This document shows positions 1,403-32,000 of a stretch of DNA of 32,000 nucleotides, piece after piece. This stretch comes from Candidatus Methanophagaceae archaeon (GTDB taxonomy: Archaea > Halobacteriota > Syntropharchaeia > Alkanophagales > Methanospirareceae), in assembly GCA_003194425.1 (NCBI GenBank), contig PQXB01000001.1:910444-942443 (forward strand). Direction: 5' to 3'. A program made the translations under genes and the position numbers. The stretch's first letter is position 1. Every line of letters begins with the position of its first letter. The notes beneath the pieces were generated by a model. The model saw nothing but the letters and a program-made list of their open reading frames with translations. It ran no database searches and had not been told where the DNA came from.

Positions 1403-1960
1403 CGGCACCAGTGTTTGCGGCGGTGCAGAACGCGAAGGCAAGCCCAGCTCGAGCAGGCGTTAAAGGGACGAATTATTCCAGTCCTGCACGGCGACATTAT
1501 TTTTGACGAGGAGCAGGGGTTTCGGATTTTGAGCGGCGACCAGGTGGTAGTGTACGCGGCGAAAGAGGTGGCGAAGGTGTTCGGAGCGAGGGCGGTAAAG
1601 GTCGGCGTGGGCAGCGATGTCGACGGCGTTCTGAGTGGGGGTAGGGAAGGGGAAGGAGAAGTGGTGAGAGAGTTAACGCCTGCCGACGCGGAGAGGGAGA
1701 GGAAAAGAAAGAGCATAAAAGGGTCGGGGAGTTTGGCTGAGATTGAGTTTGAGGTTAAGGGAAAGAGCGGAGAGACAAGCGAACTGGACATTTCCAACGG
1801 GCTGCTTGTGGATGCCGAAGCGAGAGAAATCGTGGCGAACTGGCACGACGACGAGGTTACAGTTGAACACGAGATACCTTCAGTCATAAAGCGAGGTATT
1901 TCCTGGGCATCGGCTACCTCGCGAAGTGAGGTCAAAATATTTTATCCGCTGCCCCAGTAG
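1403..1960 (+). pseudogene. Truncated isopentenyl phosphate kinase-like (amino-acid-kinase fold) relic, C-terminal half only
   Basis: The frame opens only after TAG at 1400-1402, and the first start is TTG at 1415. The product matches the C-terminal half of IPK as I recall it (GRIIPVLHGDIIFDEEQGFRILSGDQVV...GSDVDGVL). The roughly 130-aa N-terminal K-x-GGS nucleotide-binding half is absent. The DVTGGM-equivalent region reads DISNGLL, and a GA-rich low-complexity insert (GGREGEGE...ERERKRK) is present. The upstream space is taken by the divergent K+ channel gene. Confidence 0.5.
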
Positions 1961-2357
1961 TGAGAACTTTACCACTCAACGAGGGAATCCTGATAAAATG
2001 CTTCTTGTTCTCCGTAAGCAGATAATCTCCGTTTTTATAAAGAAAAGTTGCAGCGATAGCGACATCTTGATACTCTATTACAGACCCGTCTGCAATTAAG
2101 AACGCATTTATCCGACCTATTATCTCGGCTATTTCAGTGTTTAAAGGAACGATTTCGAACTTTGAGAACAGCCCCTTCGCCTTTTGAGTCGCCTTCTCAT
2201 AATCTTTCCTCAAATAAGTGCCTGTAAAAATCTCAGACAGAACAACCGCGCTTATAAAGATTTCGTGCGTTTCCAGCAGATTTTCTACAAGCCCTATTGT
2301 TCTCTTCTTTCTCCGCTCTATCTCCACGATGATGCTCGTATCCAAAGATATTCTCAT
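1932..2357 (-). CDS. vapC: PIN-domain ribonuclease toxin (VapC family)
   Basis: The 141-aa ORF begins MRISLDTSIIVEI (PIN acidic residue D6). It has further conserved acidic positions (...LSEIF..., ...QDVAIAATF..., LLTENKKHF). It is AT-rich relative to its neighbours. Its start overlaps the upstream antitoxin stop by 4 nt (ATGA). Confidence 0.85.
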   Translation of the reverse strand: MRISLDTSIIVEIERRKKRTIGLVENLLETHEIFISAVVLSEIFTGTYLRKDYEKATQKAKGLFSKFEIVPLNTEIAEIIGRINAFLIADGSVIEYQDVAIAATFLYKNGDYLLTENKKHFIRIPSLSGKVLTTGAADKIF

Positions 2358-2593
2358 CGAATCACGCCCAATCTTTTGAATCTCTCTCTTGAATCGGTCC
2401 TGATTTTTTTTAGCATAAACTCGAAATCATCGGGCAAGAAGTCATTAAAATCTTCTAAAGATCTTTCAATTTCGCTGCTTGCTCTTCTTTCTCTTTTTAT
2501 GCTGATAACCACTTTTTCGCCTTCCAAAAAATCCACTCTCTCTAAAGGTTTGAGCACCCCTTTCTCATAAACAACCTCGATTGTCTTCTGCAT
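2354..2593 (-). CDS. DUF104/UPF0165-type antitoxin (VapB-like partner of VapC)
   Basis: From the ATG at 2593 the product starts MQKTIEVVYEKGVLKPLERVDFLEGEKVVISI. This is the hallmark N-terminus of the archaeal DUF104 antitoxin family. It is translationally coupled to vapC. The track ORF start at 2617 is probably too far upstream. Confidence 0.75.
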   Translation of the reverse strand: MQKTIEVVYEKGVLKPLERVDFLEGEKVVISIKRERRASSEIERSLEDFNDFLPDDFEFMLKKIRTDSRERFKRLGVIR

Positions 2594-2617
2594 CTCTCCT
2601 CTCCTTTCAATTCTCAA

Positions 2618-2710
2618 TTATGCGTTTTCTATAGTTATTATAAAGTCTTTATAAGAAGAAAATAGAAAGTTTTTTTATTAACCTCGCCTTTATAATAATA
2701 AAGTAGCATT
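2618..2710. promoter_or_regulatory. AT-rich divergent promoter region with TATA-like boxes
   Basis: The 93-nt spacer between the vapB-like start and the GA-rich leader contains ctttataag and cctttataataataaa elements, which resemble archaeal TATA boxes. Confidence 0.35.
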
Positions 2711-2886
2711 TTAAAAGAGGAAAAAGGGGAAATGTATGAAAAGGGAGTAAAGGGGAAGGAATTGGAAACGGGACTCCCTACGAGGCGTAATTTCGCAGCA
2801 AGAGACGGGGGAACGAGTGGGGAGAGAGAGTAGAAGGGGGAAGAGTAGGAAAGGGAAGAGAGGGAGAAAAGGAGGAATAAAAAAAG

Positions 2887-4145
2887 ATGAAACCAACATT
2901 GTTTGAAATAGCAGTAGTGCTGTCTTCGGCGGTGTTTTTAATAGCACCAATGTTTGTGGCACAAGCAGCAGGAGCATGAGACGATTTCGTGTTGGGTATT
3001 TACGGTAATGCGAACGAGGACGAGACGATAGATATGCGGGACTTCACATACACGGCGCGGATAATCGCTGGTTAGAGGAGAAGAACGAGTTAGCGGATGC
3101 GAACAATGATGGTGAGATAGATGTGGGAGATATGACGCAGATTGGACTGATTATTTTGGGCAAGGAGAGTGAGCTCACGATTGTCGACGCTGCGGATAGA
3201 ATCGTGACGGTGAAGATGCCGATAGAGCGAATGGCAGTGCTAAACACCGATTTTGCGGAGGCAATTGCAGCGCTGGACGAGCGGGACAAGGTGGTCGGCG
3301 TCACCACTACCTTGACGGGCTACACGCAGTTCTTTCCAGAGCTCAGCACGAAGACCGATGTTGGAGGTTGGTACACACCCGACATAGAAGCGATTCTGGC
3401 AGTCGAGCCTGACACCGTCTGCGTTTATGCCAAGTGGCCCAGTACCGAGGCACTCGACGAGAAACTGCCCGGCGACATAAACATCGTTCGACTGGACTTC
3501 TACAAGGCACCAACACAGCGAGAAGAGATGATACAACTCGGCTACCTGCTCAACAAGAGAGAACGGGCGGACGAATACATCGAGTGGCACGACCAGTATG
3601 TGGATGAGATCTACGACCGAGTTGCGGAGATTCCAGACGACGAGAAGGTGCGAGTGTTCATCGACGCAGGCGGAGGGAAGGAGTTTGGTCGCCGAGCGTA
3701 CTCGACAGGAACGGGAATGCACGACCTCTGCGTGCTCGCGGGTGGTAAGAACATTGCAGAGGGCTACGTTGAGGGCTACGCGGATGTAGAGACCGAGTGG
3801 ATTCTGGACCAGAACCCAGATGTGATTGTCGGGATTTCATACAAGGGCGGCTACGAGACCGACGACGAGACCAAGATGGGGGAGCATTACGAGGAGATAA
3901 GAGCGCTTCCGGGCTTTGCAGAGCATGTCACGGCGGTGCAGAACGACAGCGTTTTCATTATGTCGAACGCGTTCGCATTCGCACCGCACTACCCGGCACC
4001 GCTCGCAGTGATGGCGAAGTGGCTCTACCCAAAGAGGTTCGCGGACTTCAAACCTGAAGCGATTCATCAGGAGTACATCGACGAGTTCCTCGGCATCGAC
4101 TTCGATGTCTACGAGCAGGGCGTGTTCGTATTCCCTCGACGGTGA
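2887..4145 (+). pseudogene. Disrupted secreted dockerin-fused periplasmic substrate-binding protein (TroA/FepB/BtuF-like ABC binding protein)
   Basis: ATG at 2887 encodes a signal peptide (MKPTLFEIAVVLSSAVFLIAPMFVAQAAGA) that ends at an in-frame TGA (2977-2979). The same frame continues with dockerin repeat 1 (GNANEDETIDMRDFTYTARII) to TAG at 3073-3075. Dockerin repeat 2 (ADANNDGEIDVGDMTQIGLIILG) and the binding-protein body (to 4145) lie in the -1 frame, which is open from 3009. The track ORF 3123..4145 starts at GTG inside dockerin repeat 2 and would lack any export signal. Confidence 0.65.
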
Positions 4146-4156
4146 AGGGATTGTGT

Positions 4157-4190
4157 AGGGGGAGTTTTTGCTCTCCCTTTTTTATTTTTA
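4157..4190 (+). terminator. Hairpin plus oligo-T tract downstream of the binding-protein gene
   Basis: agggggag (4157-4164) and ctctccct (4171-4178) form an imperfect stem with one mismatch. The stem is followed by ttttttattttt, and archaeal termination typically uses oligo-T runs. Confidence 0.4.
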
Positions 4191-4277
4191 ATATTCTTAA
4201 AAATTTAAGGTTTAATAAATAATATTTTTACGAAGCAGTGTAAAATAAAATAATTACAGAACAGGGGAAAACGAAAA

Positions 4278-7200
4278 ATGAAGGTGGCGGGAGTGGTGTG
4301 GGGAAGCGACAAGGCGTTGCTCGTCAATGCCTGTAAGGAGCTCGGAGTAGAGTTGAGCGTGAGGACTACACACGAGGTAGAAGAAGCGAAGAAGCGAGAG
4401 GAGTGCTTAAAATCGTTTGAGCAGGCGGACCTCATTCTCTTGCACCCCTCAACCGATGCGTATTGGGACGAAATCGCCGAGAGGCTAAACGAGAGGCAGA
4501 AAAAGGAAAAAGAGAAAGCAGTGCCAACGGTTTCGTTTGGGCACGATTCTTCCTTCTGGTCGTTTTCAAGCGTCTCCTTAAAAGTTGTTGCGACGGTCAA
4601 CGCCTACTACATCTACGGCGGGGCAGAGAACATCGAAAATATGCTAAAATATCTCGGAAAAGAGGTTTTAGGGCTGGCGGGGAAGGGCTACGACTACGAG
4701 GAGCCGAAAGAGACGCTGTGGGAGGGGATTTACCACCCTGACGCCGAGACCACTTTTGAGTGCTTGGACGACTATTTGGCGTGGTACAACGCCTCGCACA
4801 GGCAGGAACAAACACAGCACCGGCACAGAGTCGGCTTGCTCTTCTTCCGCACCTACTGGGCGAACCGAGACCTTGAGATTGTGGACGCTTTAATTCGGGA
4901 GTTAGAATCAGAGTTAGAGGACGAGAGCGGGTTTGATGTGATTCCTGTCTTCAGTTACGGCGCGGGCGACAAGGAGTTGGGTGCAAAGTCGAGCAGCGAG
5001 GTCGTTGAAGAGTTCTTTTCGGCGAGCGGGATTGAGGCACTCATAAACCTTCAGTCGATTTTTAACACAGGAGGTGCTGCTGCCGGAGGGGTGAAAGAAG
5101 AGGGAGAGAAAGAAGAAGCAGGCACGGTGAGCGCACTGAAGAGACTCGATGTCCCGGTCTTTCACCCCCTGCTCTCCTACAACACGACAGAGGAGGAGTG
5201 GAGGCGAGGGAGTCAGGGGTTGAGCAGTTTGGAGGTTGGCTGGGGCGTTGCGATGCCGGAGTTGGAGGGCGTGATCGAGCCGATAATTGTGGGCGTTTTG
5301 AAAAGGGGCGACGGGGACAGCGGAGACAGCGGAACCAAAGAAACCGAACTCGAGCAGCACGCCCCGCTAAAAGAGCGAGTGAGGAAGATTGTGCGGAGGG
5401 TAAAAAAATGGGTAGAGCTGAGAGAGAAACCGAGAGCCGAGCGGAAAGTTGCGTTCGTCCTCCACAACAACCCCTGTGCGTCTGTTGAAGCGACGGTAGG
5501 CGGTGCAGCACATCTTGATTCGCTGGAGAGCGTTGCTCGGATTTTGCAGAGGCTGGGGGAGGCGGGGTACTCAGTTGAGCCTCCGGAGCCACCCGAAGAC
5601 GGCAAGGCACTCGTAGAAGAAATTATGAGTAGAAAGGCTGTTTCCGAATTCCGGTGGACGACCGTTGACGAAATCGTAAGCAAGGGCGGGGCACTCGCAC
5701 TCGTTGAGAAGGCGGACTACGAAGAGTGGTTTGCTAGTTTCTGCCCTGAGGTGAGGGAAAGGTTGTGCGAGGCGTGGGGAAACCCGCCGGGCGAGGAGAA
5801 GGACGGCGTTCCCGCGGCGATGGTTTACGAGGGGAAAATTGTTGTAACAGGGGTGAAGTACGGAAACGCGGTCGTCTGCGTGCAGCCGAAGCGGGGCTGT
5901 GCGGGTTCGCGGTGCGACAGGCAAGTCTGCAAAATCCTTCACGACCCCGAGGTGCCGCCACCGCACCAGTACCTCGCAACCTACCACTACCTCGAGAGCA
6001 GTTTCGGGGCTGACCTGGTTGTTCATGTCGGGACGCACGGGAACCTGGAATTCCTACCTGGCAAGTCGGTCGGGCTCTCCGAGAGCTGCTACCCCGACAT
6101 CGCGATCGGCAACCTGCCGCACCTCTACATTTACAACTCAGACAACCCTCCAGAAGGTACGATTGCGAAGAGGCGGAGTTACGCAACGCTCGTCGACCAC
6201 CTGCAGACCGTGCTGACCGAGAGCGGTCTTTACGGCGACCTCAAGACGCTTGAAGACCAAATCGCAGAGTACAACAGGACAAAATCCACAGACATTGACA
6301 GGGCGAGGGCACACGCCTTGAAGCACATTATTCTGGATTTGATAAGGGAAACGGGACTGGCGGAAGAGGTGGGACTTGAGAAGAGGTTGGGAGAGGGGGA
6401 GGGGTTTGAGAAGATAATTGAACTCGCACACGACGCCATTTCTCGCGTCTACAACACGCAGATTCCTGACGGAATGCACATCTTCGGCGAAGTGCCGCAG
6501 GGTGCGAAGAGGGAGGAGTTCATCAATTCAATCCTGAAATACAATCCAGAGTTGCGGACGCCAGAGAAGGTAGCGGAGATTTCGGCGAGGCTTGAGGCGT
6601 CGGACGAGATGGGCAGTCTGCTTCACGGCTTCGACGCGGGCTACATCGAGCCCGGTCCCTCGGGACTCATCACACGCGGACACCCCGAAATCCTACCGAC
6701 TGGCAGGAACTTCTACTCCCTCGACCCGTTCAAGATTCCGACGAGAGCCGCGTGGGAGGTCGGGAAGCGACTCGCGGACGCAGTGGTGCAGAAGTACAGG
6801 GAGGAGAACGACGGGCAGCCGCCTGAAAACATCGCGATGTATTGGATGGCGTCCGACATAATGTGGGCAGACGGCGAGCAACTCTCGCAAATTCTCTACT
6901 TAATCGGCGCCGAACCTGTCTGGGACGGTGCGAGGGTGAAAGGCTACAGGATAATTCCGCTTGAGGAACTTGACGGGTGCGGAGGGCTTGGACGCCCGAG
7001 AATTGATGTGACCGTGCGGGTGAGTGGGATTACGAGGGACTGCTTCTACAACTGCATTGAACTCTTGGACGAGGCGTTGCGGGAGGTTGCGGCACTCGAC
7101 GAGCCTGCGGAGAGGAACTTTCTGCGGAAGCACTCGAGGGAGCACGCAGACGGGAGGGTGAAAGACGGGAACGCAGACGAGAGGGCGAGAGAAGGGGAAA

Positions 7201-8015
7201 GAGAAGGGAACGGACCTGAAAACGGAAGTGAGAGCGTGAGCGACCTTGCGCGGATTTTCGCGTGCAAGCCTGGGACTTACGGGAACGGCGTTAATTTGGC
7301 GGTCTACGCGTCGGCGTGGAAGGAGGAGAAGGAGTTGTCGGATGTTTTTGTGCAGTGGAACGGCTACGCCTACGGCAAGGGCAGTTTCGGGGTCGAGGCG
7401 CAGGAGAGCCTTGTCTCGCAACTCAAGACCGTCGACCTGACCTTCAACAAGACCGTCACGGACGAGTACGACCTCTTCGGGTGCTGCTGCTACTTCGGGA
7501 CGCACGGCGGTCTCACTGCTGCTGCGAGGGAGATTTCCGAGAAGGGCGAGGCGGTCTGCTCGTACTACGGCGACACGAGGGACACGAAGCGGGTAGAGGT
7601 GCGGAGCCTCGCAGACGAAGTGCGGCGGGTCGTGCGGTCGAAGTTGCTGAACCCGAAGTGGATTGAAGGAATGAAAAGGCACGGCTACAAGGGTGCAGGC
7701 GACATTTCAAAGCGAATCGGGCGGGTCTACGGCTGGGAAGCGACGACGCAGGAGGTGGACGACTGGATTTTTGACGACATCGCGAAGACTTTCGTCTTGG
7801 ACGCGGAGATGCGGAAGTTCTTCGAGGAGAACAACCCCTGGGCGTTGGAAGAGGTCGGCAGGCGGCTACTCGAGGCTTACGAGCGCGGGCTTTGGAACGC
7901 GGACGAGGAGGTGGTTGAGGGCTTGAAGAGTGCGTATTTGGAGATGGAGGGCTGGATCGAGGAGAAGATGGGGGAGGTGAAAGGCGAGTTTCAGGGCGGT
8001 GCGATCGGGGTGTAA
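4278..8015 (+). CDS. cobN: CobN/magnesium-chelatase large-subunit family protein (cobaltochelatase CobN-like)
   Basis: The 1245-aa ORF has the length and motifs typical of the CobN/BchH family (...VHVGTHGNLEFLPGK..., ...YATLVDHL..., ...ILPTGRNFYS..., ...KPGTYGNGV...). A GGGGA Shine-Dalgarno-like element precedes the ATG. A GA-rich insert lies at about 7141-7240. Confidence 0.9.
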   Translation: MKVAGVVWGSDKALLVNACKELGVELSVRTTHEVEEAKKREECLKSFEQADLILLHPSTDAYWDEIAERLNERQKKEKEKAVPTVSFGHDSSFWSFSSVSLKVVATVNAYYIYGGAENIENMLKYLGKEVLGLAGKGYDYEEPKETLWEGIYHPDAETTFECLDDYLAWYNASHRQEQTQHRHRVGLLFFRTYWANRDLEIVDALIRELESELEDESGFDVIPVFSYGAGDKELGAKSSSEVVEEFFSASGIEALINLQSIFNTGGAAAGGVKEEGEKEEAGTVSALKRLDVPVFHPLLSYNTTEEEWRRGSQGLSSLEVGWGVAMPELEGVIEPIIVGVLKRGDGDSGDSGTKETELEQHAPLKERVRKIVRRVKKWVELREKPRAERKVAFVLHNNPCASVEATVGGAAHLDSLESVARILQRLGEAGYSVEPPEPPEDGKALVEEIMSRKAVSEFRWTTVDEIVSKGGALALVEKADYEEWFASFCPEVRERLCEAWGNPPGEEKDGVPAAMVYEGKIVVTGVKYGNAVVCVQPKRGCAGSRCDRQVCKILHDPEVPPPHQYLATYHYLESSFGADLVVHVGTHGNLEFLPGKSVGLSESCYPDIAIGNLPHLYIYNSDNPPEGTIAKRRSYATLVDHLQTVLTESGLYGDLKTLEDQIAEYNRTKSTDIDRARAHALKHIILDLIRETGLAEEVGLEKRLGEGEGFEKIIELAHDAISRVYNTQIPDGMHIFGEVPQGAKREEFINSILKYNPELRTPEKVAEISARLEASDEMGSLLHGFDAGYIEPGPSGLITRGHPEILPTGRNFYSLDPFKIPTRAAWEVGKRLADAVVQKYREENDGQPPENIAMYWMASDIMWADGEQLSQILYLIGAEPVWDGARVKGYRIIPLEELDGCGGLGRPRIDVTVRVSGITRDCFYNCIELLDEALREVAALDEPAERNFLRKHSREHADGRVKDGNADERAREGEREGNGPENGSESVSDLARIFACKPGTYGNGVNLAVYASAWKEEKELSDVFVQWNGYAYGKGSFGVEAQESLVSQLKTVDLTFNKTVTDEYDLFGCCCYFGTHGGLTAAAREISEKGEAVCSYYGDTRDTKRVEVRSLADEVRRVVRSKLLNPKWIEGMKRHGYKGAGDISKRIGRVYGWEATTQEVDDWIFDDIAKTFVLDAEMRKFFEENNPWALEEVGRRLLEAYERGLWNADEEVVEGLKSAYLEMEGWIEEKMGEVKGEFQGGAIGV

Positions 8016-8019: not shown

Positions 8020-9018
8020 TCAAGTGTTAGCGGGGGGTAAGACACAGAAAATTATCCACTCCCCCCTCGCCTCTCTCGTCGTGCCTACGACCAACCTCGT
8101 CTCGTGTTTTGTGCGTTCCACTACGCCGCGAGCCGCGATTTCCTCACCCGCGAACGCCTGCCCCGCGTAAGTGTGCGTGAACGAGAGGATTTTGCTTATT
8201 TCGGGGTGCTCGATTTCGTAGATTGCCGGGCTGTCAAAGGCGAACGAAGCGTCTTTTACTACCGCTGTTATTTCCGCGTAACCGACCCGCTCGCCGCGTT
8301 CGTAGTTCCGTTTGTCCAACCGCCCGATTTCCTCCCAGTCACGCGCAAACAAAATATCAAAATAGGTCTCGCCGACGACGCCCCTGTTCTTCTTCCGCCG
8401 CTCGTGTGCAACGAAATTGTCGTAGCTCAACGCAGGCTGCCGCTTCTCGTAAATCTGCCTCCACACCGCCTCTTTTAACTCTGCCATTCCCTCCTGCTCT
8501 ACGACCGACCTCGCGAGGTCAAAGTTCTCCCGCCCGTAAACAACGAAATCAAGGTCGGATTTTTCGGTGTTAAGACCGCACAGAAAAGAGCCTGTGATCC
8601 CGATTTTCTCTCCCTGAACCCCGCGTTCTTTCAAGAACTCAAACAAACTCCTGACCCTCTCGTCTCGTCCAGCAACCGCAGGAAGCCGCTCCTCAGGTCG
8701 CAGGATTTCTTTCACCTCCCTGCGCGGAACGGAATGCACATTTTGCACGCTCTTTAAGTAGTCCGGACGGTGCCGCCTCAGAAACTCAAAAGACTCGTGA
8801 AAGTCAAGTTTCCTGTACCTCCGGCTCTCTCCCTCTCCTGCTCCCTCCTCTGAGACCCTCTCCCCGCTCTTGTCCGGAACGTACCGCAGGAGGCATTGAA
8901 TTTCTTCTTCGTCCCCTCCCTCGCCACCCAGGTCGTAGCTGACCACCGAAAAAATCCAGTCCTGCTCGGTTACCACAAAATCGCGTAGCCTCGCTCTCGT
9001 TCTCCTGCTCGTTTTCAT
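8020..9018 (-). CDS. Pol-beta-superfamily nucleotidyltransferase, conserved archaeal type (COG1665-like)
   Basis: The 332-aa ORF has the minimal nucleotidyltransferase signature GSFLCGLNTEKSDLDFVVYG (G-S...D-x-D). The remainder resembles the conserved archaeal predicted-nucleotidyltransferase family as I remember it. Acidic and GA-rich inserts lie near the N-terminus (GGEGGDEEE, EEGAGEGE). Confidence 0.55.
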   Translation of the reverse strand: MKTSRRTRARLRDFVVTEQDWIFSVVSYDLGGEGGDEEEIQCLLRYVPDKSGERVSEEGAGEGESRRYRKLDFHESFEFLRRHRPDYLKSVQNVHSVPRREVKEILRPEERLPAVAGRDERVRSLFEFLKERGVQGEKIGITGSFLCGLNTEKSDLDFVVYGRENFDLARSVVEQEGMAELKEAVWRQIYEKRQPALSYDNFVAHERRKKNRGVVGETYFDILFARDWEEIGRLDKRNYERGERVGYAEITAVVKDASFAFDSPAIYEIEHPEISKILSFTHTYAGQAFAGEEIAARGVVERTKHETRLVVGTTREARGEWIIFCVLPPANT

Positions 9019-9021
9019 ACA

Positions 9022-9510
9022 CTATTTATTTGGATAAATGAGGTACTTTTCATCAGATTTATCTACTTTAACAAAGAACGAGTTTTTTTTCTTGTTTTTC
9101 TTGAACCGATTGGAGTTTTTTAAATCTTCCCACGGAAACAACCATATTTTATCAAGCGAGTAGTCGTCGTTGAAATGCACAAACATTAAATGCGTTGGCA
9201 AATCGTCGCTCTCAATTTTAGAAATGTTACCGGTTTTTTTCCATCCTCCTGCATTCCCCTTGCGTGTCTTTACTAAAATCCTCTCGCCCTTTTTAGTCTT
9301 GAATTCGTGCGACTGACCGGAATCTAATTCTCCGTCTTTGAGAAGTTTTCCATAAATCAGTCCAAGCCCACCCACAAAATCGTTCTTCTTAAGCTTCTTT
9401 GGCTTTGCGCGTTTTTCCAACTCTTCTCGGATACACTTTTCTGCCTTCCAGAGATTAGAAAGATCTCCCTTCAATTCAGATTCTAACTCTTCAAGTTCTT
9501 TTTGAGTCAT
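9022..9510 (-). CDS. AT-rich lysine-rich orphan protein (hypothetical); possible degenerate PD-(D/E)xK-like core
   Basis: The likely start is ATG at 9510 (MTQKELEELESELKG...), giving 162 aa. The stop is 3 nt from the start of the downstream nucleotidyltransferase gene. The gene is visibly much more AT-rich than either flank. An N-terminal coiled-coil-like segment is followed by GGLGLIYGKLL...SHEFKTKKGERILVKTRK. Confidence 0.55.
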   Translation of the reverse strand: MTQKELEELESELKGDLSNLWKAEKCIREELEKRAKPKKLKKNDFVGGLGLIYGKLLKDGELDSGQSHEFKTKKGERILVKTRKGNAGGWKKTGNISKIESDDLPTHLMFVHFNDDYSLDKIWLFPWEDLKNSNRFKKNKKKNSFFVKVDKSDEKYLIYPNK

Positions 9511-9531
9511 TTTTTGGATTATTTTTGCAAT

Positions 9532-9573
9532 AAAATTAAAAAGACTCAAAGGAAAATTAAAAAGACTCAAAGG
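9532..9573. repeat. Perfect 21-nt tandem duplication in a divergent promoter spacer
   Basis: aaaattaaaaagactcaaagg occurs at 9532-9552 and again at 9553-9573. This lies between the orphan gene start (9510) and the NIL-ferredoxin start (9590). Confidence 0.95.
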
Positions 9574-9589
9574 TAAAACAAAGCAAAAG

Positions 9590-11193: not shown

Positions 11194-11210
11194 TCTACAT
11201 ATTCTCCGTT

Positions 11211-19352: not shown

Positions 19353-19367
19353 CTTAACCAACTTTTC

Positions 19368-23490: not shown

Positions 23491-23529
23491 TTCCCTTCTT
23501 CCCGCCGCCATCTCCCTTCTTCCGCCGCC
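23488..23529 (-). repeat. About 21-nt tandem duplication spanning the hepT ribosome-binding region and start codon
   Basis: The plus strand reads catttcccttcttcccgccgc (23488-23508) followed by catctcccttcttccgccgcc (23509-23529). On the sense strand this gives ...ggaagaagggagATG gcggcgggaagaagggaaATG. Confidence 0.85.
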
Positions 23530-23556
23530 ACACACCACCGCTCAACCGCTCAGTCC

Positions 23557-25144: not shown

Positions 25145-26599
25145 CTAAACACTAAATCTCTTCTCCCACTTACACAACTCCAGCACCTGCGAGAGCGTCT
25201 TCCCGCGTTTTATCTCCGCCCTTACCCGCTCCTCGCTCTTCCAGACCTCCTTCGCCCGCCGTGCGATTTCGTACGCCTGCTCTTTTGGAACGACCACAAC
25301 GCCGTCCCTGTCGCCTACGACCCAGTCCCCGTTCCGCACCTCCTCGCCGCCGCAGTTTATCTCTGCGTTTATTTCTCCGAACCCCTTCGGCTCGCCTGCG
25401 TTCGGGACCACGAATTTAGCGAAAACAGGAAACCCCAACCCGCGAATCTCCGCCACATCCCGCACTGCACCGTCAACAACAACGCCCGCAATCCCTTTCT
25501 GCTTGCAGCTCCACGACGCGAGTTCGCCCCAAACAGCCACCTCCTTAGAGCCTGCGTAAACTACGATTACCTCGCCCGCCGCCGCTACGTCCGTCGCCTC
25601 AACAGGCTTTGCCCAGTCGCCCTCAAATGTCTGCACTGTTACCGCTTTTCCCACGAGTTTTGCACCTGCACCCTCGCCCTCGCCCTCGCCCCCCACTCCT
25701 CCGACTTCGAAGACCGGTTTTATACCCCGCATCACGCCCTTGCGGTGCATCGCATCCGAGATGTTCGCTGTGGAGACCTGCGAAAGTAACTCAAAAATCT
25801 GGTCGTCCCTCGTTTTTTCTTCCTTCCCCCCCTCTCCCAAATCTTTTCCCACCTCCGCTCCCAAATCTTTTCCCGCCTCCGCTCCCAAATCTAAGCCCTC
25901 TCTTATTTTCTTCGTCGCTTCTCGCACATTCGCAGACCGAATTATATTCCCTCCAACAATAACAACATCGGCACCCAAACGCACTGCTTCCGCCGCCGTC
26001 TCCGCGTCCACACCTCCCGCCACCGCCAACTGCGTGCTCGGACTCGGCGTGCTCGTGCTCACCACCGCAGCCGCGACCTCTTTCAGCAGGCTCAACGCGT
26101 CCATTCCACGCATCTGCTGGTCAATTCCGACGTGCACGCAGACGAAATCCACGCCCTTCGCCGCCAGTTCCTTCGCCCGCGCCACAGGCTCCACAGCGTT
26201 CATTAAATCCGCCATAATTTCAACGCCGTATTTACGAGCAGACTTCACCGCCTCCTCAATGACCGCGTCGTCCGCGAGTGCGAGAAGCGAGACCACCGAA
26301 GCCCCTGACTTCGCCGCCATCTCCACTTCCACCGCTCCCGTGTCCGTCGTCTTCATATCCGCAACTATTTTCACACCTCCACTTCCACTCGCACCACCAC
26401 CTCCACTCGCACCTACACCCGCACCCGAGCCAACGAAAGCCTCGTTCAACGCCCTCACTGCTTGCATTCCCTCGCTCTTTATCAACGGCGTTCCCGCCTC
26501 TAACCAGTCCGCACCCGCTTCTACGCACTCCCTACCGATTTCCACCGCTCTCTCCAACTCAAGCACATCGAGAGCGACCTGCAGTATTTTCCTCTTCAC
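25145..26599 (-). CDS. Bifunctional 3-hexulose-6-phosphate synthase-like (OMPDC fold) / RraA-like fusion protein
   Basis: The N-terminal half reads KILQVALDVLELERAVEIG...ADWLEAGTPLIK...KIVADMKTTDTG...VGGNII, which is the Hps/KGPDC family. The C-terminal half reads STANISDAMHRKGVM...GELASWSCKQKGIAGVVVDGAVRDV..., which is the RraA/HMG-aldolase fold. Several low-complexity inserts are present, including a 24-nt repeat at 25834-25895. Confidence 0.8.
   Translation of the reverse strand: MKRKILQVALDVLELERAVEIGRECVEAGADWLEAGTPLIKSEGMQAVRALNEAFVGSGAGVGASGGGGASGSGGVKIVADMKTTDTGAVEVEMAAKSGASVVSLLALADDAVIEEAVKSARKYGVEIMADLMNAVEPVARAKELAAKGVDFVCVHVGIDQQMRGMDALSLLKEVAAAVVSTSTPSPSTQLAVAGGVDAETAAEAVRLGADVVIVGGNIIRSANVREATKKIREGLDLGAEAGKDLGAEVGKDLGEGGKEEKTRDDQIFELLSQVSTANISDAMHRKGVMRGIKPVFEVGGVGGEGEGEGAGAKLVGKAVTVQTFEGDWAKPVEATDVAAAGEVIVVYAGSKEVAVWGELASWSCKQKGIAGVVVDGAVRDVAEIRGLGFPVFAKFVVPNAGEPKGFGEINAEINCGGEEVRNGDWVVGDRDGVVVVPKEQAYEIARRAKEVWKSEERVRAEIKRGKTLSQVLELCKWEKRFSV
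25834..25895 (-). repeat. In-frame 24-nt x2.6 tandem repeat at the Hps/RraA domain junction
   Basis: The plus strand reads ctcccaaatcttttcccacctccg, then ctcccaaatcttttcccgcctccg, then ctcccaaatctaag. The encoded peptide is LDLGAEAGKDLGAEVGKDLGEG. Confidence 0.9.
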
Positions 26600-27158: not shown

Positions 27159-27212
27159 TTTCTCTCCTCTCCTCTCCTCTTCTCCTTTCTCCTTCCCCCT
27201 TTTCCTCCTCTT

Positions 27213-29657
27213 TTACTTCTTTCCTTTCCCCCTCCCCCGCACCAGCCGCTCCAAATTCGTGGGGTTAAACGAGGGGTTGTAGCCGCGAATCGGACCCTCT
27301 TTTATCTTCTTCGTCTTCCAGTCAACCACCCAGCCCTGCTCGTCCTCTAACTTCTTCAGCAACTCGCCCTTCGCCGCGATCGGCAGGTCGCTCGCAGTCC
27401 TGACGAAGAGGTGCCAGTCCGGCGGGTACGCACTCAAGTACTTCTGGCTCAAGTCAATGTAGTGCGTCAGTTTTATCGAACGACCGCGGTCGGTGTCCGA
27501 GGGACGGAAGCAGAGTTTCGCGATCATCGGCAACGCCTCCTCCACCGTCTCGCAAGCCACGAGCAAGTGCTGCGGACCCGGCTCTACGAAAACCTCCGAC
27601 CCGTCAGTAGCGTCAATTATCCTCCAATCTTCGCTCCTGTCCGCGCGACCGAGGAACGCCCGCCTGTATTTTGCACCGTGCGGACCGACGACAGCGGGAA
27701 CGCCCAACCGATTAAAACCGGTTGCGATTGACGCCGCCTTCTGCGACATTGCACCCCACGCGACACCGCACGCCCCCACGCGGCTCAGAATGTAATCTGC
27801 GATCTCCTCGTAGTTCCCTCGCAGCGGTCTGCCCGCGAAGATGCTCGCTACTTTTATCGCAGCGTCGTGAATGTGTGCGTTCGAGACGCAGGAGCCGATG
27901 TTGAGGACACCGCCTGCGTCGAACCCGCCGTGGTGCTGCTCGTAGAGCGTCTTCCCGTCTTCGTCCTTCCAGAGCGCGGCGTCAATTGCCATACAGCCGG
28001 TCAGCGTGACGATGTAGTTCCGCTCTGCGAACTCTTTCACGATGAGCCAGGCGTCCTTCGTCCCGTTGGGGTAGTTTCCGCAGCCGATTGGAGCGATAAT
28101 TCCCGGAATCGTGCCCAAGACAATCGGAGCGCCCACTTCTCTTATCTCGCTGTCCCAGACAGGACCTCTCCCAATTCGCATCCTTCCTTTCTCGGCTTTT
28201 ACCTGCGGGTAAGCGGCTTTCGTTATCACATCCACAATCGGAATGTGCTTCTTGCAGACCTGCTCGCACCGCCCGCAGCCGACGCAGAGGTCAAACAAGT
28301 CCGCAAGCGGCTTCGTGTCTCCTAACGCCGCGGCGCTCTTGTTCGCCTCGCCGATCCGAAGCCCGTTCGGACAAGCAAGCGTGCAGCCGCCACACTGAAT
28401 GCACTCACCCACCCAGTGTTTAAATTCCGCATCGGTCAAAATAAAACTCAACTTCCTCCGCTTCCTGTCCATCTCCAACGCCGTCCGCACCGCGACCTCG
28501 CCCACTTGGTCGGGCTCGAGAATTACGACCCCCGGAACGCGCTCGCTCACCAAATCCGCAACGATTTTGTCAGGGTCGTCGTCAGTGCGGTCCACCAGCC
28601 CGTGCATCGCCTTGTCGTTCGTTGCGATCAGAGGCGAGTGTGTCTTCTGACAGAGTTCTAAAACGTCCGCACGAATGCACTGCTCGTCCACCACCACGAC
28701 ATCCGCAATCCCTGCCCGCAGCACACGCAGCTGCCGTCCAAGCGCCGACGCAATTTTCGCCTTCTTGTAGACCCGCGTCGTGTCTATTGAGGTGCAGCAG
28801 ATTCCCCCCAGCTCAACCACCTCCTCAAGCCCCTTCTCGGTCAGGTAGTCGCCGATGTCCGCAGCCGGCGGGACGTTGTGTCCAATCACGATAATCACGG
28901 GCTTCTCGGTCTCAATCGTCCCGATTCCGACATCCACGAGCGGAACATCAGGTCCGTCGCCCACACCCGTAAAACCCGACGGCATTTTGTAGCACGCGAT
29001 CTGAATAATGTCCGCCGCCTCCTTGTTCAGCGAATCCAGCATTCCCATATGCAGCGCCTTCGACTCGAAGTCCAAGTACGAACCTTCCTGACCGGTGTGG
29101 AGAGCGTCCGCCAACTGGACGATCTGCTCTTCGATGTAGTTGAAGACTTTCTCGTAGTCGCCGATCGTGCGCGGTTTTATGCCGCAGACCAGCCTCGTAA
29201 GCGGCGCTTCAATGTCCACCTCAGGCCCAAAATCTATCGGCACATCCCTCCCAAACTTTTTTATCATATCGTGCAGCAGGTGCCGCCCGTGCCCGCAGTG
29301 CGCACTACAACCCACCAAACAAGCAAGCAGAACAATTCTCCCGTGCTGTGCGTCCATCCGAATTCCGCAGGCGCCCTTCTTGTTCCCCGTGAGGTCACAT
29401 TTGCCGTAGGTACATAAGCAACACATATCGCAAAGCGGTGCGTAAAACGGCTTGTAGCGGTTCAGAAGTTTGAAATCCCAGTCTCGAAGCGTGGCAATCC
29501 TCGGCATCGGGTGCGGTCCCATCGGCTCCCTCTCTTTCCCTTCTCCCTCACCCGCTCTCCCCTCTTTCTCTCCTGCTTCCACTATTTCCCCAATGCTAAT
29601 CCGCACATTTTTCAAGTCCGAGATCTCAAAAATCCCGCCTTTCTTTAGCTCTTCCAT
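27213..29657 (-). CDS. cdhA: Acetyl-CoA decarbonylase/synthase complex alpha subunit (CO dehydrogenase catalytic subunit)
   Basis: The 814-aa ORF has N-terminal Cys clusters (CDMCCLCTYGKCDL, ACGI) and an inserted ferredoxin domain (CIQCGGCTLACP, CVGCGRCEQVCKK). It also has C-cluster-type motifs (GHNV..., GICCT, GCGNYP, GSCVSNAH). Confidence 0.95.
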   Translation of the reverse strand: MEELKKGGIFEISDLKNVRISIGEIVEAGEKEGRAGEGEGKEREPMGPHPMPRIATLRDWDFKLLNRYKPFYAPLCDMCCLCTYGKCDLTGNKKGACGIRMDAQHGRIVLLACLVGCSAHCGHGRHLLHDMIKKFGRDVPIDFGPEVDIEAPLTRLVCGIKPRTIGDYEKVFNYIEEQIVQLADALHTGQEGSYLDFESKALHMGMLDSLNKEAADIIQIACYKMPSGFTGVGDGPDVPLVDVGIGTIETEKPVIIVIGHNVPPAADIGDYLTEKGLEEVVELGGICCTSIDTTRVYKKAKIASALGRQLRVLRAGIADVVVVDEQCIRADVLELCQKTHSPLIATNDKAMHGLVDRTDDDPDKIVADLVSERVPGVVILEPDQVGEVAVRTALEMDRKRRKLSFILTDAEFKHWVGECIQCGGCTLACPNGLRIGEANKSAAALGDTKPLADLFDLCVGCGRCEQVCKKHIPIVDVITKAAYPQVKAEKGRMRIGRGPVWDSEIREVGAPIVLGTIPGIIAPIGCGNYPNGTKDAWLIVKEFAERNYIVTLTGCMAIDAALWKDEDGKTLYEQHHGGFDAGGVLNIGSCVSNAHIHDAAIKVASIFAGRPLRGNYEEIADYILSRVGACGVAWGAMSQKAASIATGFNRLGVPAVVGPHGAKYRRAFLGRADRSEDWRIIDATDGSEVFVEPGPQHLLVACETVEEALPMIAKLCFRPSDTDRGRSIKLTHYIDLSQKYLSAYPPDWHLFVRTASDLPIAAKGELLKKLEDEQGWVVDWKTKKIKEGPIRGYNPSFNPTNLERLVRGRGKGKK

Positions 29658-29719: not shown

Positions 29720-30148
29720 TTATTCGCTGCTGCCGCTTTCCTCTTCACCCTCACGCGCCGCTTTCCTCTTCACCATCACACAGACATTCTGCACCACTTT
29801 TATGCGGTTTCGAGTGCAGAAATTTATCGCTCGCTCGGATTCAGAACCGGGCTGCATCCACACTCGCTCTACGCCTAATTCCTTGCACTCCTCAACTACC
29901 TTTTCCGTTACCGCTGGCGGGACTACGGTGTCTACAACATCAGGTCTTTCTGGCAGTTCGCCCAGCGAGTGGTAGCAGCGGTCGCCCAAGACTTCGTCAA
30001 TGTTCGGGTTCACTGCGTAAACTGCGTAACCCGCTTCTTTCAGGTCTTTGTAGACCTGATGCCCGTATTTCGCAGGATCTCTCGAGACGCCAACGACTGC
30101 AAAAACATTCTGCTTCCTCAGGAAGTCTTTTATTAGGTCAGTGCTCAT
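29720..30148 (-). CDS. CoA-binding domain protein (YccU/YneT-like)
   Basis: The sequence NVFAVVGVSRDPAKYGHQVYKDLKEAGYAVYAVNPN...VDTVVPPAV...VWMQPGSES fits the small CoA_binding_2 family pattern. Confidence 0.8.
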   Translation of the reverse strand: MSTDLIKDFLRKQNVFAVVGVSRDPAKYGHQVYKDLKEAGYAVYAVNPNIDEVLGDRCYHSLGELPERPDVVDTVVPPAVTEKVVEECKELGVERVWMQPGSESERAINFCTRNRIKVVQNVCVMVKRKAAREGEEESGSSE

Positions 30149-30187
30149 TTTTTAGACGGTTACAAACTTTTAAGATATTATGGTACT

Positions 30188-30241
30188 GGGCGAAAATATA
30201 ACTGGGCGTGGGCGAAAATATAACTGGGCGAGAATATAAAA
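30188..30241. promoter_or_regulatory. Triplicated gggcg-aaaatataa (BRE/TATA-like) element in a divergent promoter
   Basis: gggcgaaaatataact occurs at 30188-30203 and 30211-30226, and gggcgagaatataaaa at 30227-30241. This ends directly at the ATG (30242) of the mqn radical SAM gene. The second TATA-like box sits about 24 nt upstream of the ATG, which is consistent with a leaderless transcript. Confidence 0.5.
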
Positions 30242-31300
30242 ATGGACGAGTGGAAGCCGAGGAAGATTGAAGCACTCTTTGAACTGGGCGTCCACGAGCT
30301 CGGGGAGCGGGCAGATTCCGTCAACCGCAGGAACGGAAACATCGTGACTTTCGTCGTTAACCGACACATAAATTACACGAACATTTGCGTCTCGAAGTGT
30401 CCGCTCTGCGCCTTTTACCGCGACGCTGAAGAGAGTGACGCGTATTTTATGAGCGCTGCGGAGGTGCTTGAGAAGGCTGCGGAGGCTGTAAAAAAGGGTG
30501 CTACGGAACTTCACATCGTCGGCGCACTCAACCCTGAAATGAGCGTAGAATACTTCGAGCGGATTTTCGGGCAGATAAAACGTCGGTTTCCAGAGGTTGT
30601 CGTAAAAGCCTTGACCGCGACTGAAATTCATTTTCTCTCGCAGCACGAGGGGACGAGCGTTGCGGAAGTGCTCGGACGGTTGAGGGACGCGGGACTGCGA
30701 GCAATGCCCGGCGGTGGTGCGGAGATTCTTGACGACGAAATTCGGGCGGTCATTTGCCCGAGCCCGCAGAAAGTAACAGCCGAGGAGTGGCTTCGGACGG
30801 TGGAGACTGCCCACCGCCTCGGAATAAAGAGCAACGCGACAATGCTCTTCGGGCACATTGAAACACCAAGACACCGCGCTCTTCACCTCTACCGGCTCTG
30901 GCAGTTGCAGGAGAAGACGGGCGGGTTTGTCTCCTTCGTCCCGCTCGTTTTTTACCCCGAGAACACGGAGCTCAAAGCACGAGGGCTGGTTGAGGAGAAG
31001 ACGAGCCCCGTGGACGTGCTCAAGACGATCGCGGTCTCCAGAATTGTGCTGCAGAAGTTCAAGAGCGTGCGGGCGTACTGGGTCGCACTCGGCGAACGGC
31101 TCGCTCAGGTCGCTCTAAATTACGGTGCGAACGATTTGGACGGCACGCTTACCGAGGAGCGGGTCACGCACTCTGCGGGGGCGAAAACGCCTCTTGCACT
31201 TCAGACAAACAAGATTCTGAGCCTTGTGCGGGGCGCGAACGCGAACAAAATACCCGCAGAAAGGGACACTTTTTACAACATTTTGAAGGTGTTTTCGTGA
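30242..31300 (+). CDS. Radical SAM enzyme of the MqnC/MqnE (CofH-like) family, futalosine-pathway menaquinone biosynthesis
   Basis: The radical SAM cluster motif is NICVSKCPLCAFY (C-x3-C-x2-C). The length and the motifs HIVGALNP, GGGAEIL, ATMLFGHIET and ANDLDGT are typical of this family. The gene is adjacent to mqnA. I cannot tell MqnC from MqnE by eye. Confidence 0.75.
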   Translation: MDEWKPRKIEALFELGVHELGERADSVNRRNGNIVTFVVNRHINYTNICVSKCPLCAFYRDAEESDAYFMSAAEVLEKAAEAVKKGATELHIVGALNPEMSVEYFERIFGQIKRRFPEVVVKALTATEIHFLSQHEGTSVAEVLGRLRDAGLRAMPGGGAEILDDEIRAVICPSPQKVTAEEWLRTVETAHRLGIKSNATMLFGHIETPRHRALHLYRLWQLQEKTGGFVSFVPLVFYPENTELKARGLVEEKTSPVDVLKTIAVSRIVLQKFKSVRAYWVALGERLAQVALNYGANDLDGTLTEERVTHSAGAKTPLALQTNKILSLVRGANANKIPAERDTFYNILKVFS

Positions 31301-31301
31301 A

Positions 31302-32000
31302 ATGAGCAGGAAGACAAGAATCGGGAAGTTCGGGTTCGTGAACAATTTTCTGCCTTACTACAGGCTGGAGCAGAACGGGGTGGCGGTGGTTGAGGCGTCG
31401 CCGAAGCGGTTGGCGGGGCTGCTTGAGCGGGGCGAGGTGGATTTCGCACCCGTGCCTTCGTTCTACTACCTGAAGAACAAGGAGAAGTTGAGGAGTTACG
31501 AGTTCTGCGTCGCCTCAACAGAGCGGGTCTTGAGTGTGGTCGTCGTTTCCGAGAGGGCGGGGCGGCTTGAAAGGGGAGCAGGGCTTGAAGGAGAGTGGAG
31601 AAACGGCTGTGTCGCTGCGACGAACCAGACAGTAACCTCGCTCAACCTGCTGAAAATTATTCTGCGGGAGCGGGGGTTGGGAGAGGTGGGGTTGGGAGAG
31701 GCAGGGTTGGGAGAGGCAGGGTTGGGAGAGGCGGAGTTGGGAGAGGCGTGGGAGGTGAAGGTTGTGAATGAAAGTAGGGCAGGCGAACTACTCAAGCACG
31801 GCACGTACGCACTCGTGATCGGCGACGAGGCGATCCGGGCGAGGCTGACTAACAAGTACAGGGTAGAGTTGGATTTGGGAGCGGAGTGGCGGGAATTAAC
31901 GGGCTGTCCGATGGTTTTTGGGATTTCGGCGTCGCCGAGGGAGAAGGAGTTGGGAGAAGAGAGCAGGAAGGTTTTGGAGTCGCTGGCGTGGGGGGAGAAG
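31302..32000 (+). CDS. mqnA: Chorismate dehydratase MqnA (partial, 3' end outside the window)
   Basis: ATG at 31302 lies 1 nt after the upstream stop, and the frame is open to the window end. The N-terminus IGKFGFVNNFLPYY...ASPKRLAGLLERGEVDFAPVPSFYY fits the MqnA periplasmic-binding-fold family. It contains a 15-nt x5 repeat. Confidence 0.7.
   Translation, partial: MSRKTRIGKFGFVNNFLPYYRLEQNGVAVVEASPKRLAGLLERGEVDFAPVPSFYYLKNKEKLRSYEFCVASTERVLSVVVVSERAGRLERGAGLEGEWRNGCVAATNQTVTSLNLLKIILRERGLGEVGLGEAGLGEAGLGEAELGEAWEVKVVNESRAGELLKHGTYALVIGDEAIRARLTNKYRVELDLGAEWRELTGCPMVFGISASPREKELGEESRKVLESLAWGEK
31674..31748 (+). repeat. In-frame 15-nt x5 tandem repeat (GLGE[VA]) in mqnA, a canonical G-quadruplex motif
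   Basis: The units are gggttgggagaggtg, gggttgggagaggca, gggttgggagaggca, gggttgggagaggcg and gagttgggagaggcg. Confidence 0.95.

Follow-up and report, generated by a model that had tools for sequence, protein, structure and literature searches.

Why should so many conserved enzymes of one archaeon carry short, in-frame tandem repeats that encode hydrophilic peptides with no motif in common? The question is raised by a stretch of 32,000 nucleotides (nt) from Candidatus Methanophagaceae archaeon (contig PQXB01000001.1, positions 910,444 to 942,443), referred to here, at its full length, as the window. A first-pass annotation of its letters had reported polypurine tandem repeats inside at least a dozen conserved genes and had ascribed them to recent slippage or duplication under selection. 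We analyzed the window together with overlapping contigs of the same species, which brings the contiguous sequence sampled to ~54 kb of one chromosomal neighbourhood. Our results suggest that the repeats probably stem from a burst of short tandem duplication and expansion that is specific to the lineage and has been filtered for reading frame and for hydrophilic loops.

Arrays were counted with Tandem Repeats Finder (TRF) at a period of at least 9 nt and a score of at least 50, and a curated gene map was used to separate genic from non-coding arrays. The arrays reported inside conserved enzymes proved to be real: TRF recovered each of those listed, offset by a few bases at most, and Pfam matches confirmed the gene identities, namely CobN, a CDP-alcohol phosphatidyltransferase, a geranylgeranyl-reductase-family flavoprotein (GGR), 4-HFC-P synthase (MfnB), a cupin-type phosphoglucose isomerase (GPI; cPGI below), a GHMP-kinase-like beta-RFAP synthase, a UPF0020 (Trm11-like) methyltransferase, an MntA/HepT pair, an OMPdecase-RraA fusion and CdhA; mqnA is partial, being cut by the right-hand edge of the window. 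Neither Rfam nor tRNA scans of the window gave any match. In total, 16 arrays were observed within genes and 7 outside them. The expected number within genes was 0.34 +/- 0.62 after gene-wide codon shuffling, 0.93 after shuffling in 20-codon blocks, which keeps local composition, and 2.4 after shuffling in 10-codon blocks, and a chance origin of the genic arrays is thus excluded.

The unit length is a multiple of 3 in 15 of the 16 coding arrays but in only 1 of the 7 non-coding arrays of the window (Fisher p = 5e-4), and over the 54 kb in 21/24 coding versus 3/18 non-coding arrays (p = 5e-6). The claim that every coding unit keeps the frame therefore stands except for one 25-nt duplication, at 29732-29779. 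As had also been claimed, the purine-rich strand is the mRNA-sense strand on both strands of the window: sense-strand purine is 0.74-1.00 in all 16 coding arrays, 7 of them in + genes and 9 in - genes, and exceeds 0.5 in 23 of the 24 coding arrays over the 54 kb. The genes themselves follow Szybalski's rule, with a sense purine content of 0.57-0.66 for soluble proteins whichever strand they lie on. Copies within an array match at 79-100% (TRF), the encoded peptides were confirmed to have no common motif, and arrays were seen in ~20 of ~50 genes across the 54 kb.

Comparison between strains revealed how labile these arrays are. Seven alleles were compared, those of the window and of six overlapping conspecific contigs (L001-L006), which show 97.7-99.5% nucleotide identity in BLAST blocks. 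The copy-number heterogeneity that the first-pass annotation had envisaged was found between strains, as whole-unit differences at almost every array and at no fewer than 12 of them, including pssA, GGR (two arrays), mfnB, cPGI, RFAP synthase (two), trm11, mntA, hps (three), mqnA and the ribosomal protein L15 gene in the left flank. Over 19.8 kb, the seven alleles differ by 42 distinct indels, as against 302 single-nucleotide polymorphism columns. Of these indels, 28/31 in genes but only 2/11 outside are multiples of 3 (p = 2e-5), and 19 of the in-gene indels are gains or losses of at least 9 nt that adjoin a similar copy. The coding arrays of the window and their alleles, with lengths given relative to the window, are as follows (aa, amino acids).

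6353-6392, + strand: cobN, 2.2 copies of 18 nt (GLAEEVGLEKRLG), TRF score 50, sense purine 0.78.
7144-7196, + strand: cobN, 2.0 copies of 27 nt within a longer GA-rich insert at ~7141-7240; CobN measures 1245, 1246, 1256, 1257 or 1262 aa among strains.
9992-10053, + strand: pssA-like CDP-alcohol phosphatidyltransferase, N-terminal array EKEGEGEREREKVREREK, with TRF periods of 6 and 24 and a sense-strand purine content of 0.96; L003/L004 are 24 nt shorter and L002/L005 18 nt longer.
13533-13608, + strand: GGR, GEGRER array, 4.2 copies of 18 nt; +18 nt in L001 and L002, -18 nt in L004.
13835-13878, + strand: GGR, E/R-rich array, 2.5 copies of 18 nt, 100% purine; +54 nt in L002, +72 nt in L005.
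15173-15212, - strand: mfnB, AEREER array, 2.2 copies of 18 nt with a 9-nt sub-unit; +9 nt in L001 and L006, +36 nt in L002.
17919-18027, + strand: cPGI, EKVQRG array, 6.1 copies of 18 nt with 100% match, all units identical; six copies in the window versus three or four in other strains.
19934-19967, - strand: beta-RFAP synthase, GSEGE array, 2.3 copies of 15 nt; -15 nt in L001/L004.
20225-20253, - strand: beta-RFAP synthase, SRNG array, 2.4 copies of 12 nt; two to five copies across strains.
21256-21315, - strand: trm11-like methyltransferase, GQRE/GQGE array, 5 copies of 12 nt; L001 shares the five copies of the window, L002 has three and L003-L006 have two.
22629-22703, - strand: mntA nucleotidyltransferase, C-terminal tail RLDKLRGG, 3 copies of 24-27 nt; one 27-nt unit more in the window than in all 5 other strains.
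23488-23530, - strand: start of hepT or upstream of it, 2.1 copies of 21 nt (GGGRREMAAGRREM); since the annotated length of HepT is 144 or 160 aa depending on the strain, this array may be a 5' leader and not coding.
25671-25691, - strand: hps-rraA fusion, GEGEGE run in the RraA-like domain, TRF 3.5 copies of 6 nt; -6 nt in L006.
25834-25892, - strand: hps-rraA, DLGAEAGK array in the inter-domain linker, 2.5 copies of 24 nt; -24 nt in L002/L003.
26374-26419, - strand: hps-rraA, G/S/A-rich array, 2.6 copies of 18 nt; +18 nt in L002, -6 nt in L003.
29732-29779, - strand: CoA-binding-domain gene, C-terminal tail, a 25-nt tandem duplication (TRF 1.9 copies) and the sole coding array of the window with a unit that is not a multiple of 3; the copies are read in two frames (VMVKRKAA, then REGEEESG) and followed by a stop, and the protein thereby gains a new C-terminal tail. 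Strain L091 has lost the stop codon as well (167 aa versus 142 aa).
31673-31748, + strand: mqnA, five GLGEA copies in 15-nt units (TRF 5.1 copies of 15 nt); MqnA measures 270, 280 or 285 aa among strains.

Several of the insert-bearing GGR, cPGI, RFAP synthase and hps-rraA alleles are without a precomputed Pfam match, while shorter alleles have one. Four less regular inserts had been grouped with the arrays. They are GA-rich, with a sense purine content of 0.73-0.95, but are low-complexity stretches and not clean arrays; one is the cobN insert given above, and the other three are the following.

1636-1715, + strand: AA_kinase fragment, GA-rich low-complexity stretch GGREGEGE...ERERKRKS, sense purine 0.81, with a weak TRF period of 11 at 1638-1661; the Pfam AA_kinase match covers only part of the protein that carries it.
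8821-8930, - strand: COG1665-like nucleotidyltransferase, low-complexity G/E-rich stretches, sense purine 0.73; no TRF array, and no polymorphism among the strains that cover the site.
29526-29580, - strand: cdhA, N-terminal low-complexity stretch EAGEKEGRAGEGEGKERE, sense purine 0.95; no TRF array and not polymorphic, CdhA being 814 aa in all other strains listed except L002, where 15 inserted nt at the C-terminal end (window 27215) bring it to 819 aa.

The N-terminal region of the carbon monoxide dehydrogenase subunit is unmodelled in the solved structure from a related archaeon (PMC11493965), and the cdhA stretch falls in the corresponding part of the subunit.

Duplications also occur outside genes, with periods of 14, 16, 19, 20, 22, 23, 25, 28 and 34 nt and mixed base composition in the window and its flanks. 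Those of the window are listed here.

9531-9578: non-coding, 2.2 copies of 21-22 nt; a 21-nt deletion in L001.
10815-10870: non-coding, between convergent genes, 2.0 perfect copies of 28 nt (100% match); single copy in all 5 other strains, no flanking microhomology.
11209-11346: non-coding pair, 2.4 copies of 14 nt and 2.0 copies of 23 nt, mixed base composition.
16299-16335: non-coding, a 19-nt duplication, mixed in composition; L001, L005 and L006 have one copy.
27168-27206, - strand: transcribed cdhA/cdhB spacer, 100% sense purine, period ~20 and hence not a multiple of 3; a 31-nt indel in four strains.
30187-30230: non-coding, divergent promoter region, perfect 22-nt duplication.

Fresh duplications in genes are not restricted to purine-rich sequence either, as pssA has gained a second YALSPLV, in a membrane segment, and RFAP synthase a second VLENQDR, each as a singleton in one strain. 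In addition, one assembly (JGI 3300005264, L097 ~3390-4260; position 3617 in L096) contains a perfect 46-nt tandem duplication without flanking microhomology, which breaks fwdC (formylmethanofuran dehydrogenase subunit C) into open reading frames (ORFs) of 118 aa and 183 aa. Taken together, the arbitrary periods in non-coding DNA and the rare out-of-frame duplications in genes (25 nt, and 46 nt in fwdC) suggest that the process is blind to frame and that selection does the filtering. Among the two-copy, perfect, polymorphic duplications, 7/10 lack flanking microhomology altogether, and in the remaining three it amounts to 1, 2 and 4 nt; in this small sample, and with differing pipelines, the proportion is compatible with the 75% expected at random (p = 0.72) and departs from the ~30% published for duplications within microbial species (p = 0.011). 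The earlier proposal of recent slippage or duplication under selection thus holds with respect to recency and to the filter for frame and hydrophilicity, but classical microhomology slippage is not clearly the founding step.

To which lineage does this behaviour belong? The first-pass annotation had placed the DNA in an Archaeoglobi-like archaeon, an assignment that has to be given up, as the closest proteins are those of Methanophagales, or ANME-1 (anaerobic methanotrophic archaea, group 1). Among the matches listed, ArgB finds predominantly Methanophagales/ANME-1 metagenome-assembled genomes (MAGs) in the GTDB species representatives, at 75-82% identity; the neighbouring TBP is identical to a protein of "ANME-1 cluster archaeon ex4572_4"; and Methanophagales/'Ca. 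Methanophagaceae' proteins on deposit (PXF51659.1, PXF51662.1) match ArgB and PdxS exactly. ANME-1 GB37 (PQXB01, 4 contigs, 1.53 Mb, from a Guaymas 37 °C enrichment) and ex4572-4 (from a Guaymas mat at 50-80 °C) have been listed as one species (Chadwick et al., PMC9012536), and the repeat-rich species is probably this Guaymas Basin GB37/ex4572-4 species of ANME-1.

With identical TRF settings, the density of arrays per 10 kb is 7.2 in the window and 6.6 in the six conspecific contigs, as against 0.53 in 26 other ANME-1 loci (266 kb), 0 in one Alkanophaga locus and 1.9 in an outgroup of 55 loci (934 kb, mostly Methanosarcinales). For purine- or pyrimidine-rich arrays, the corresponding values are 5.0, 4.7, 0.15, 0 and 0.26. 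Similarly, conspecific contigs that extend the window to the left (14.3 kb) hold 14 arrays, among them one of five AEGK copies in the L15 ribosomal protein, one of E/G in FwdC and several polypurine ones in spacers, and those that extend it to the right (7.7 kb) hold 5, including six TAEG copies in Rpb4 and QGQQGQQG in a PurP-family gene, so that the density over the whole 54 kb is 7.8 per 10 kb. The flank densities support a lineage property; the suggestion of a genome property is borne out only across the ~54 kb of contiguous sequence sampled.

Several simple causes can be set aside. GC content does not account for the arrays, as arrays number 0-1 per locus both in ANME-1 at 54-56% GC and in Alkanophaga at 52.5%. 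Nor does purine loading, as argB and the genes for cPGI and RFAP synthase have a similar sense purine content in most ANME-1 loci that are poor in arrays; for argB the value is ~0.59 in the window, 0.57-0.61 in most other ANME-1 and ~0.54-0.55 in GC-rich lineages (L010-L012, L016) and Alkanophaga (L029). Being common to repeat-poor ANME-1, purine loading can account for the polarity of the arrays but not for their existence. The abundance of polypurine tracts fails as a cause too: polypurine/polypyrimidine tracts (30 nt, at least 85%) occur at 16 per 10 kb in the window versus 8 in other ANME-1, a ~2-fold difference beside one of 14-30-fold for arrays. The substrate thus exists elsewhere, and it is duplication, expansion or retention that differs. 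A HemB homologue with insert-like sequence (P0243) was discarded, since it comes from a different ANME-1 MAG (JAODGR) and so not from the same species. We found no account of these repeats in the ANME-1 literature searched, including PMC9894754, PMC13385816 and PMC9012536; a study of strain variation in these archaea dropped variants of 50 bp or less (PMC13385816).

Orthologues indicate that the inserts are recent. Their absence was established for cPGI, RFAP synthase and GGR in other ANME-1, and for mfnB and cPGI in solved structures. Four orthologues from other ANME-1 lack the cPGI insert. In RFAP synthase, four low-complexity sites are specific to the species, with inserts absent in other ANME-1; at the SRNG site the latter have a longer, non-repetitive segment (EEVVSILEQIRSRIE). 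In GGR, GEGRGEGGG is all that the sister species has in place of the 4-5 GEGRER units (its orthologue is 85% identical in the multiple alignment and 78% by BLASTP), and 11 more distant orthologues are without any insert at this site. The sister-species contig (L094, ERZ23498719) has a GC content of 43.7% versus 53.7% for the window, a difference that lies mostly in neighbouring genes and spacers, the GGR gene being at 0.50 in both. Had the inserts been old and stable, relatives would be expected to carry them at the same positions in diverged form; instead, other ANME-1 lack them and the sister species has a one-unit seed. The view that they are not ancient linkers is therefore upheld, and ancient stable linkers are ruled out by the absence from orthologues together with unit identities of up to 100%.

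The inserts appear to sit in loops, linkers or termini, and for three proteins alignment gaps or a structural model point to a loop. In mfnB, a ~20-residue insert that is absent from M. jannaschii MfnB falls between residues 56 and 60 of 4RC1, and in cPGI a ~36-residue insert falls between two blocks aligned to PDB 1J3P, at residues 116 and 121. An AlphaFold2 model of GGR has a predicted local distance difference test score (pLDDT) below 50 at residues 59-85, in a loop, and 162-171, between two strands; these two inserts are its only long internal segments with pLDDT <50 and have no secondary structure, whereas the rest is folded (mean pLDDT 73, predicted template-modelling score 0.78). The DLGAEAGK array of hps-rraA separates the Pfam matches to OMPdecase and RraA, and the arrays or stretches of mntA, the CoA-binding gene, pssA and cdhA are terminal. 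Thus, the inserts do lie inside conserved proteins, as had been noted, but at loops, linkers and termini and not within core elements.

We propose that tandem duplications of ~8-46 nt arise, or persist, at an unusually high rate in this lineage, and that arrays, once formed, would gain and lose units quickly. Duplication would be blind to reading frame and sequence type, so that any period and composition might be left in non-coding DNA, while in genes purifying selection would spare units that are a multiple of 3 nt and encode flexible, hydrophilic peptides (G/E/R/K/S/Q/A/D). Surviving inserts would be confined to surface loops, inter-domain linkers and termini and, given that GGN, GAR, AGR and AAR codons are purine-rich and ANME-1 genes purine-loaded, would appear as sense-strand polypurine tracts. 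The sense polarity of the arrays would thus follow from the purine-rich codons of G, E, R and K and from genes that were already purine-loaded, and as it tracks gene orientation on both strands of one contiguous region, it points to the direction of coding or transcription and not to that of replication. We infer that the duplication rate itself, and not retention alone, is elevated and that the inserts are nearly neutral.

Some points weigh against this proposal. Near-neutrality is assumed, the excess may reflect rate or retention, and a single neighbourhood of ~54 kb was sampled, so a regional hot spot may be involved. Two apparent coding arrays with imperfect copies depart from a multiple of 3, one of 22 nt in a CCG-domain gene (L096 417-459) and one of 14 nt in an AFOR gene (L101 5611-5641), which may be chance matches, compensated duplications or annotation errors. 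In addition, several transcribed spacers bear sense-strand polypurine arrays with periods that are not multiples of 3 (27168-27206; L096 4114, 7197, 9812 and 9944), and protein-level selection is therefore not the sole source of the strand bias, to which some contribution at the nucleic-acid level, from pre-existing purine-rich leaders or non-B DNA, is likely.

A possible but rather unlikely explanation is that the instability stems mainly from non-B DNA or transcription: sense-strand polypurine and G-run tracts would form H-DNA triplexes, G-quadruplexes (G4) or R-loops, stall replication and so trigger duplication and expansion, specifically where purine-rich DNA is transcribed. G4-capable motifs (four runs of at least three G, loops of at most 7 nt; 9990-10024, 13528-13596, 19929-19959, 23222-23252, 25671-25694, 29518-29562, 31666-31726 and 10820-10868) reach 2.8 per 10 kb, the values for other ANME-1 and for Methanosarcinales being 0.17 and 0.06; each of the 8 genic motifs lies on the sense (non-template) strand, mostly within an array, the multi-copy, multi-allelic arrays are the purine-rich ones, and the strand bias tracks the direction of transcription. 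However, many fresh duplications are mixed in composition (16, 19, 21, 22, 23, 27, 28 and 46 nt), other ANME-1 have half the polypurine tracts yet 14-30 times fewer arrays, and the G4 motifs may be a mere by-product of Gly/Glu/Arg codon repeats, which they probably are; we keep them as a possible contributor only. It seems improbable that the inserts are adaptive, with disordered charged or glycine-rich loops selected for solubility, for hydrothermal adaptation at Guaymas or as copy-number tuning knobs, or with purine loading selected at the RNA level. Such selection would accord with the hydrophilic, sense-purine character of every coding array, the sense-strand polypurine arrays of transcribed spacers, the strong purine loading of the genes (0.57-0.66) and the origin of species members from a microbial mat at 50-80 °C and an enrichment culture at 37 °C (PMC9012536). 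It accords poorly with copy numbers that vary freely among near-identical strains (3, 4 or 6 in cPGI; 2, 3 or 5 in trm11), with peptides that have no motif in common, with the lack of inserts in the sister species and all other ANME-1 examined, thermophilic GC-rich lineages included, and with equal purine loading in most ANME-1 loci that have no arrays; moreover, the mixed-composition non-coding and out-of-frame duplications suggest an undirected process.

A local hypervariable hot spot or recently acquired island, instead of a lineage property, is very improbable, even though strain-specific islands flank or interrupt the region (9004-9565, insertions at 21626, a variable block beyond 1745) and variable hot spots have been reported in ANME-1 genomes (PMC13385816): the arrays affect core housekeeping genes and genes of the C1 pathway, whose best matches are in ANME-1, the density stays high through 22 kb of additional flanks (SecY, L15, TBP, Fwd, Rpb4, PurP), and GC content and purine loading are even across the window. 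It is scarcely credible that the arrays are assembly or sequencing artefacts, or the ancient linkers dismissed above. Short-read assemblers can collapse or expand repeats, and N-gaps adjoin two arrays in one locus (L006); yet more than 10 independent assemblies (ENA, NCBI, JGI, Logan) carry the arrays, alleles are common to subsets of strains in consistent patterns, and arrays of at most 108 nt fit within one read. Their presence in independent assemblies from many samples excludes an assembly artefact.

A further, speculative reading goes beyond the proposed burst: the species might be in a heritable mutator state for microhomology-independent short tandem duplication, which would continuously vary protein lengths in the core proteome. 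We consider this unlikely as matters stand. Candidate sources would be altered Okazaki-flap processing (Fen1, RNase HII, polymerase strand displacement) or the fill-in and end-joining of staggered breaks. If true, this would be a mutational regime undescribed in archaea and unlike the microhomology-mediated route reported to be dominant across life. The low microhomology among the duplications is a lead and not a finding. Microhomology-mediated tandem duplication (MTD) likewise produces short tandem duplicates that are polymorphic within species and grow into multi-copy arrays; it has been linked to Okazaki-fragment maturation, and ~25-30% of intraspecies variable duplications are without microhomology arms (bioRxiv 10.64898/2026.02.28.708716). 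Here, by contrast, that share is 7/10, in a sample whose size and pipeline were qualified above, and on present evidence the arrays were not founded by MTD.

Among known systems, the low-complexity inserts of Plasmodium falciparum offer a close likeness. There, too, lineage-specific, hydrophilic and compositionally biased inserts occupy loops of conserved housekeeping enzymes (PMC3140889), and they are length-polymorphic between isolates, with a composition that mirrors the genome-wide nucleotide bias. The present host, however, is an archaeon, its inserts are rich in G/E/R/K from GA-rich codons and not in Asn/Lys from AT-rich DNA, and discrete, minisatellite-like units of 9-27 nt in near-perfect copies replace the mostly homopolymeric or cryptic runs of Plasmodium. 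For the Plasmodium inserts, a role of purine loading is said to have been argued by Pizzi and Frontali in 2001 and by Xue and Forsdyke in 2003. The sense polarity of the arrays is also that expected from purine loading under Szybalski's rule, which is strong in thermophiles. Purine loading of mRNA-synonymous strands was reportedly treated by Lao and Forsdyke in 2000. Its relation to thermophily is discussed in PMC1769408.

Comparison can also be made with the coding satellites, or variable-number tandem repeats (VNTRs), of prokaryotes such as Methanosarcina, Burkholderia and Halobacteria, whose units are multiples of 3 that encode amino-acid repeats and whose density varies strongly between species. 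The arrays behave as coding VNTRs in having head-to-tail copies of high identity, copy numbers that vary within the species and frame-preserving units. In a survey that did not cover ANME-1, most prokaryotic genomes had 0-3 satellites per Mb, and the long coding repeats were mostly domain repeats of surface proteins (S-layer, PKD, TPR), unlike the short units found here in cytoplasmic core enzymes, a ribosomal protein and an RNA polymerase subunit (PMC6749651). The density here is ~4 times that of the mostly Methanosarcinales loci at the same TRF settings, and Methanosarcinales are the richest archaeal group of that survey (PMC6749651). The arrays also resemble the contingency loci of bacterial pathogens in being hypermutable, with strain-dependent copy numbers. 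In contingency loci, repeats in surface or restriction-modification genes switch expression by frameshift or promoter spacing. Because the units described here keep the frame and lie in housekeeping enzymes, they are not contingency loci.

The neighbourhood shows other kinds of variation as well. A 218-aa ORF (9022-9678, - strand), without a credible Pfam match, lies in a ~560-nt block (9004-9565) beside the nucleotidyltransferase gene; the block is present in the window, L001 and L005 and absent from L002-L004, and thus forms a small strain-specific island. At window 21626, between the trm11-like gene and pdxS, two strains have multi-kb insertions (L001 13176-16653, L005 12765-20251) that encode giant proteins of secreted type, one of 969 aa (SLT, VWA, PKD, CARDB) and one of 1941 aa (CARDB). 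Beyond ~1745, to the right of the AA_kinase fragment, the neighbourhood is strain-variable: the window has a PIN toxin and a 340-aa periplasmic binding protein, with a small ORF at 2354-2617 upstream of the toxin as a candidate antitoxin, while L096 has two cohesin-domain proteins and a 436-aa binding protein (15990-19933) and L088 has PPS_PS and PTH2 (144-1719). Two long ORFs, at 275-1375 (+ strand) and 21625-22482 (- strand), are antisense to a trkA-like channel gene and pdxS and only 39-40% purine when read as sense; they are artefacts of strong purine loading, which depletes antisense stop codons.

If it extends genome-wide, the pattern would give a natural example, in an archaeon, of housekeeping enzymes riddled with low-complexity inserts, a condition hitherto best known from Plasmodium. 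The host is an ecologically important uncultured methane oxidiser for which a 37 °C enrichment culture and transcriptomes exist, and the arrays offer hypervariable markers for tracking ANME-1 strains in Guaymas-type sediments. The inserts also appear to degrade automated domain annotation and to inflate apparent protein diversity. Finally, genome comparison between close repeat-rich and repeat-poor relatives makes it testable what sets the rate of short tandem duplication in archaea and its dependence on microhomology.

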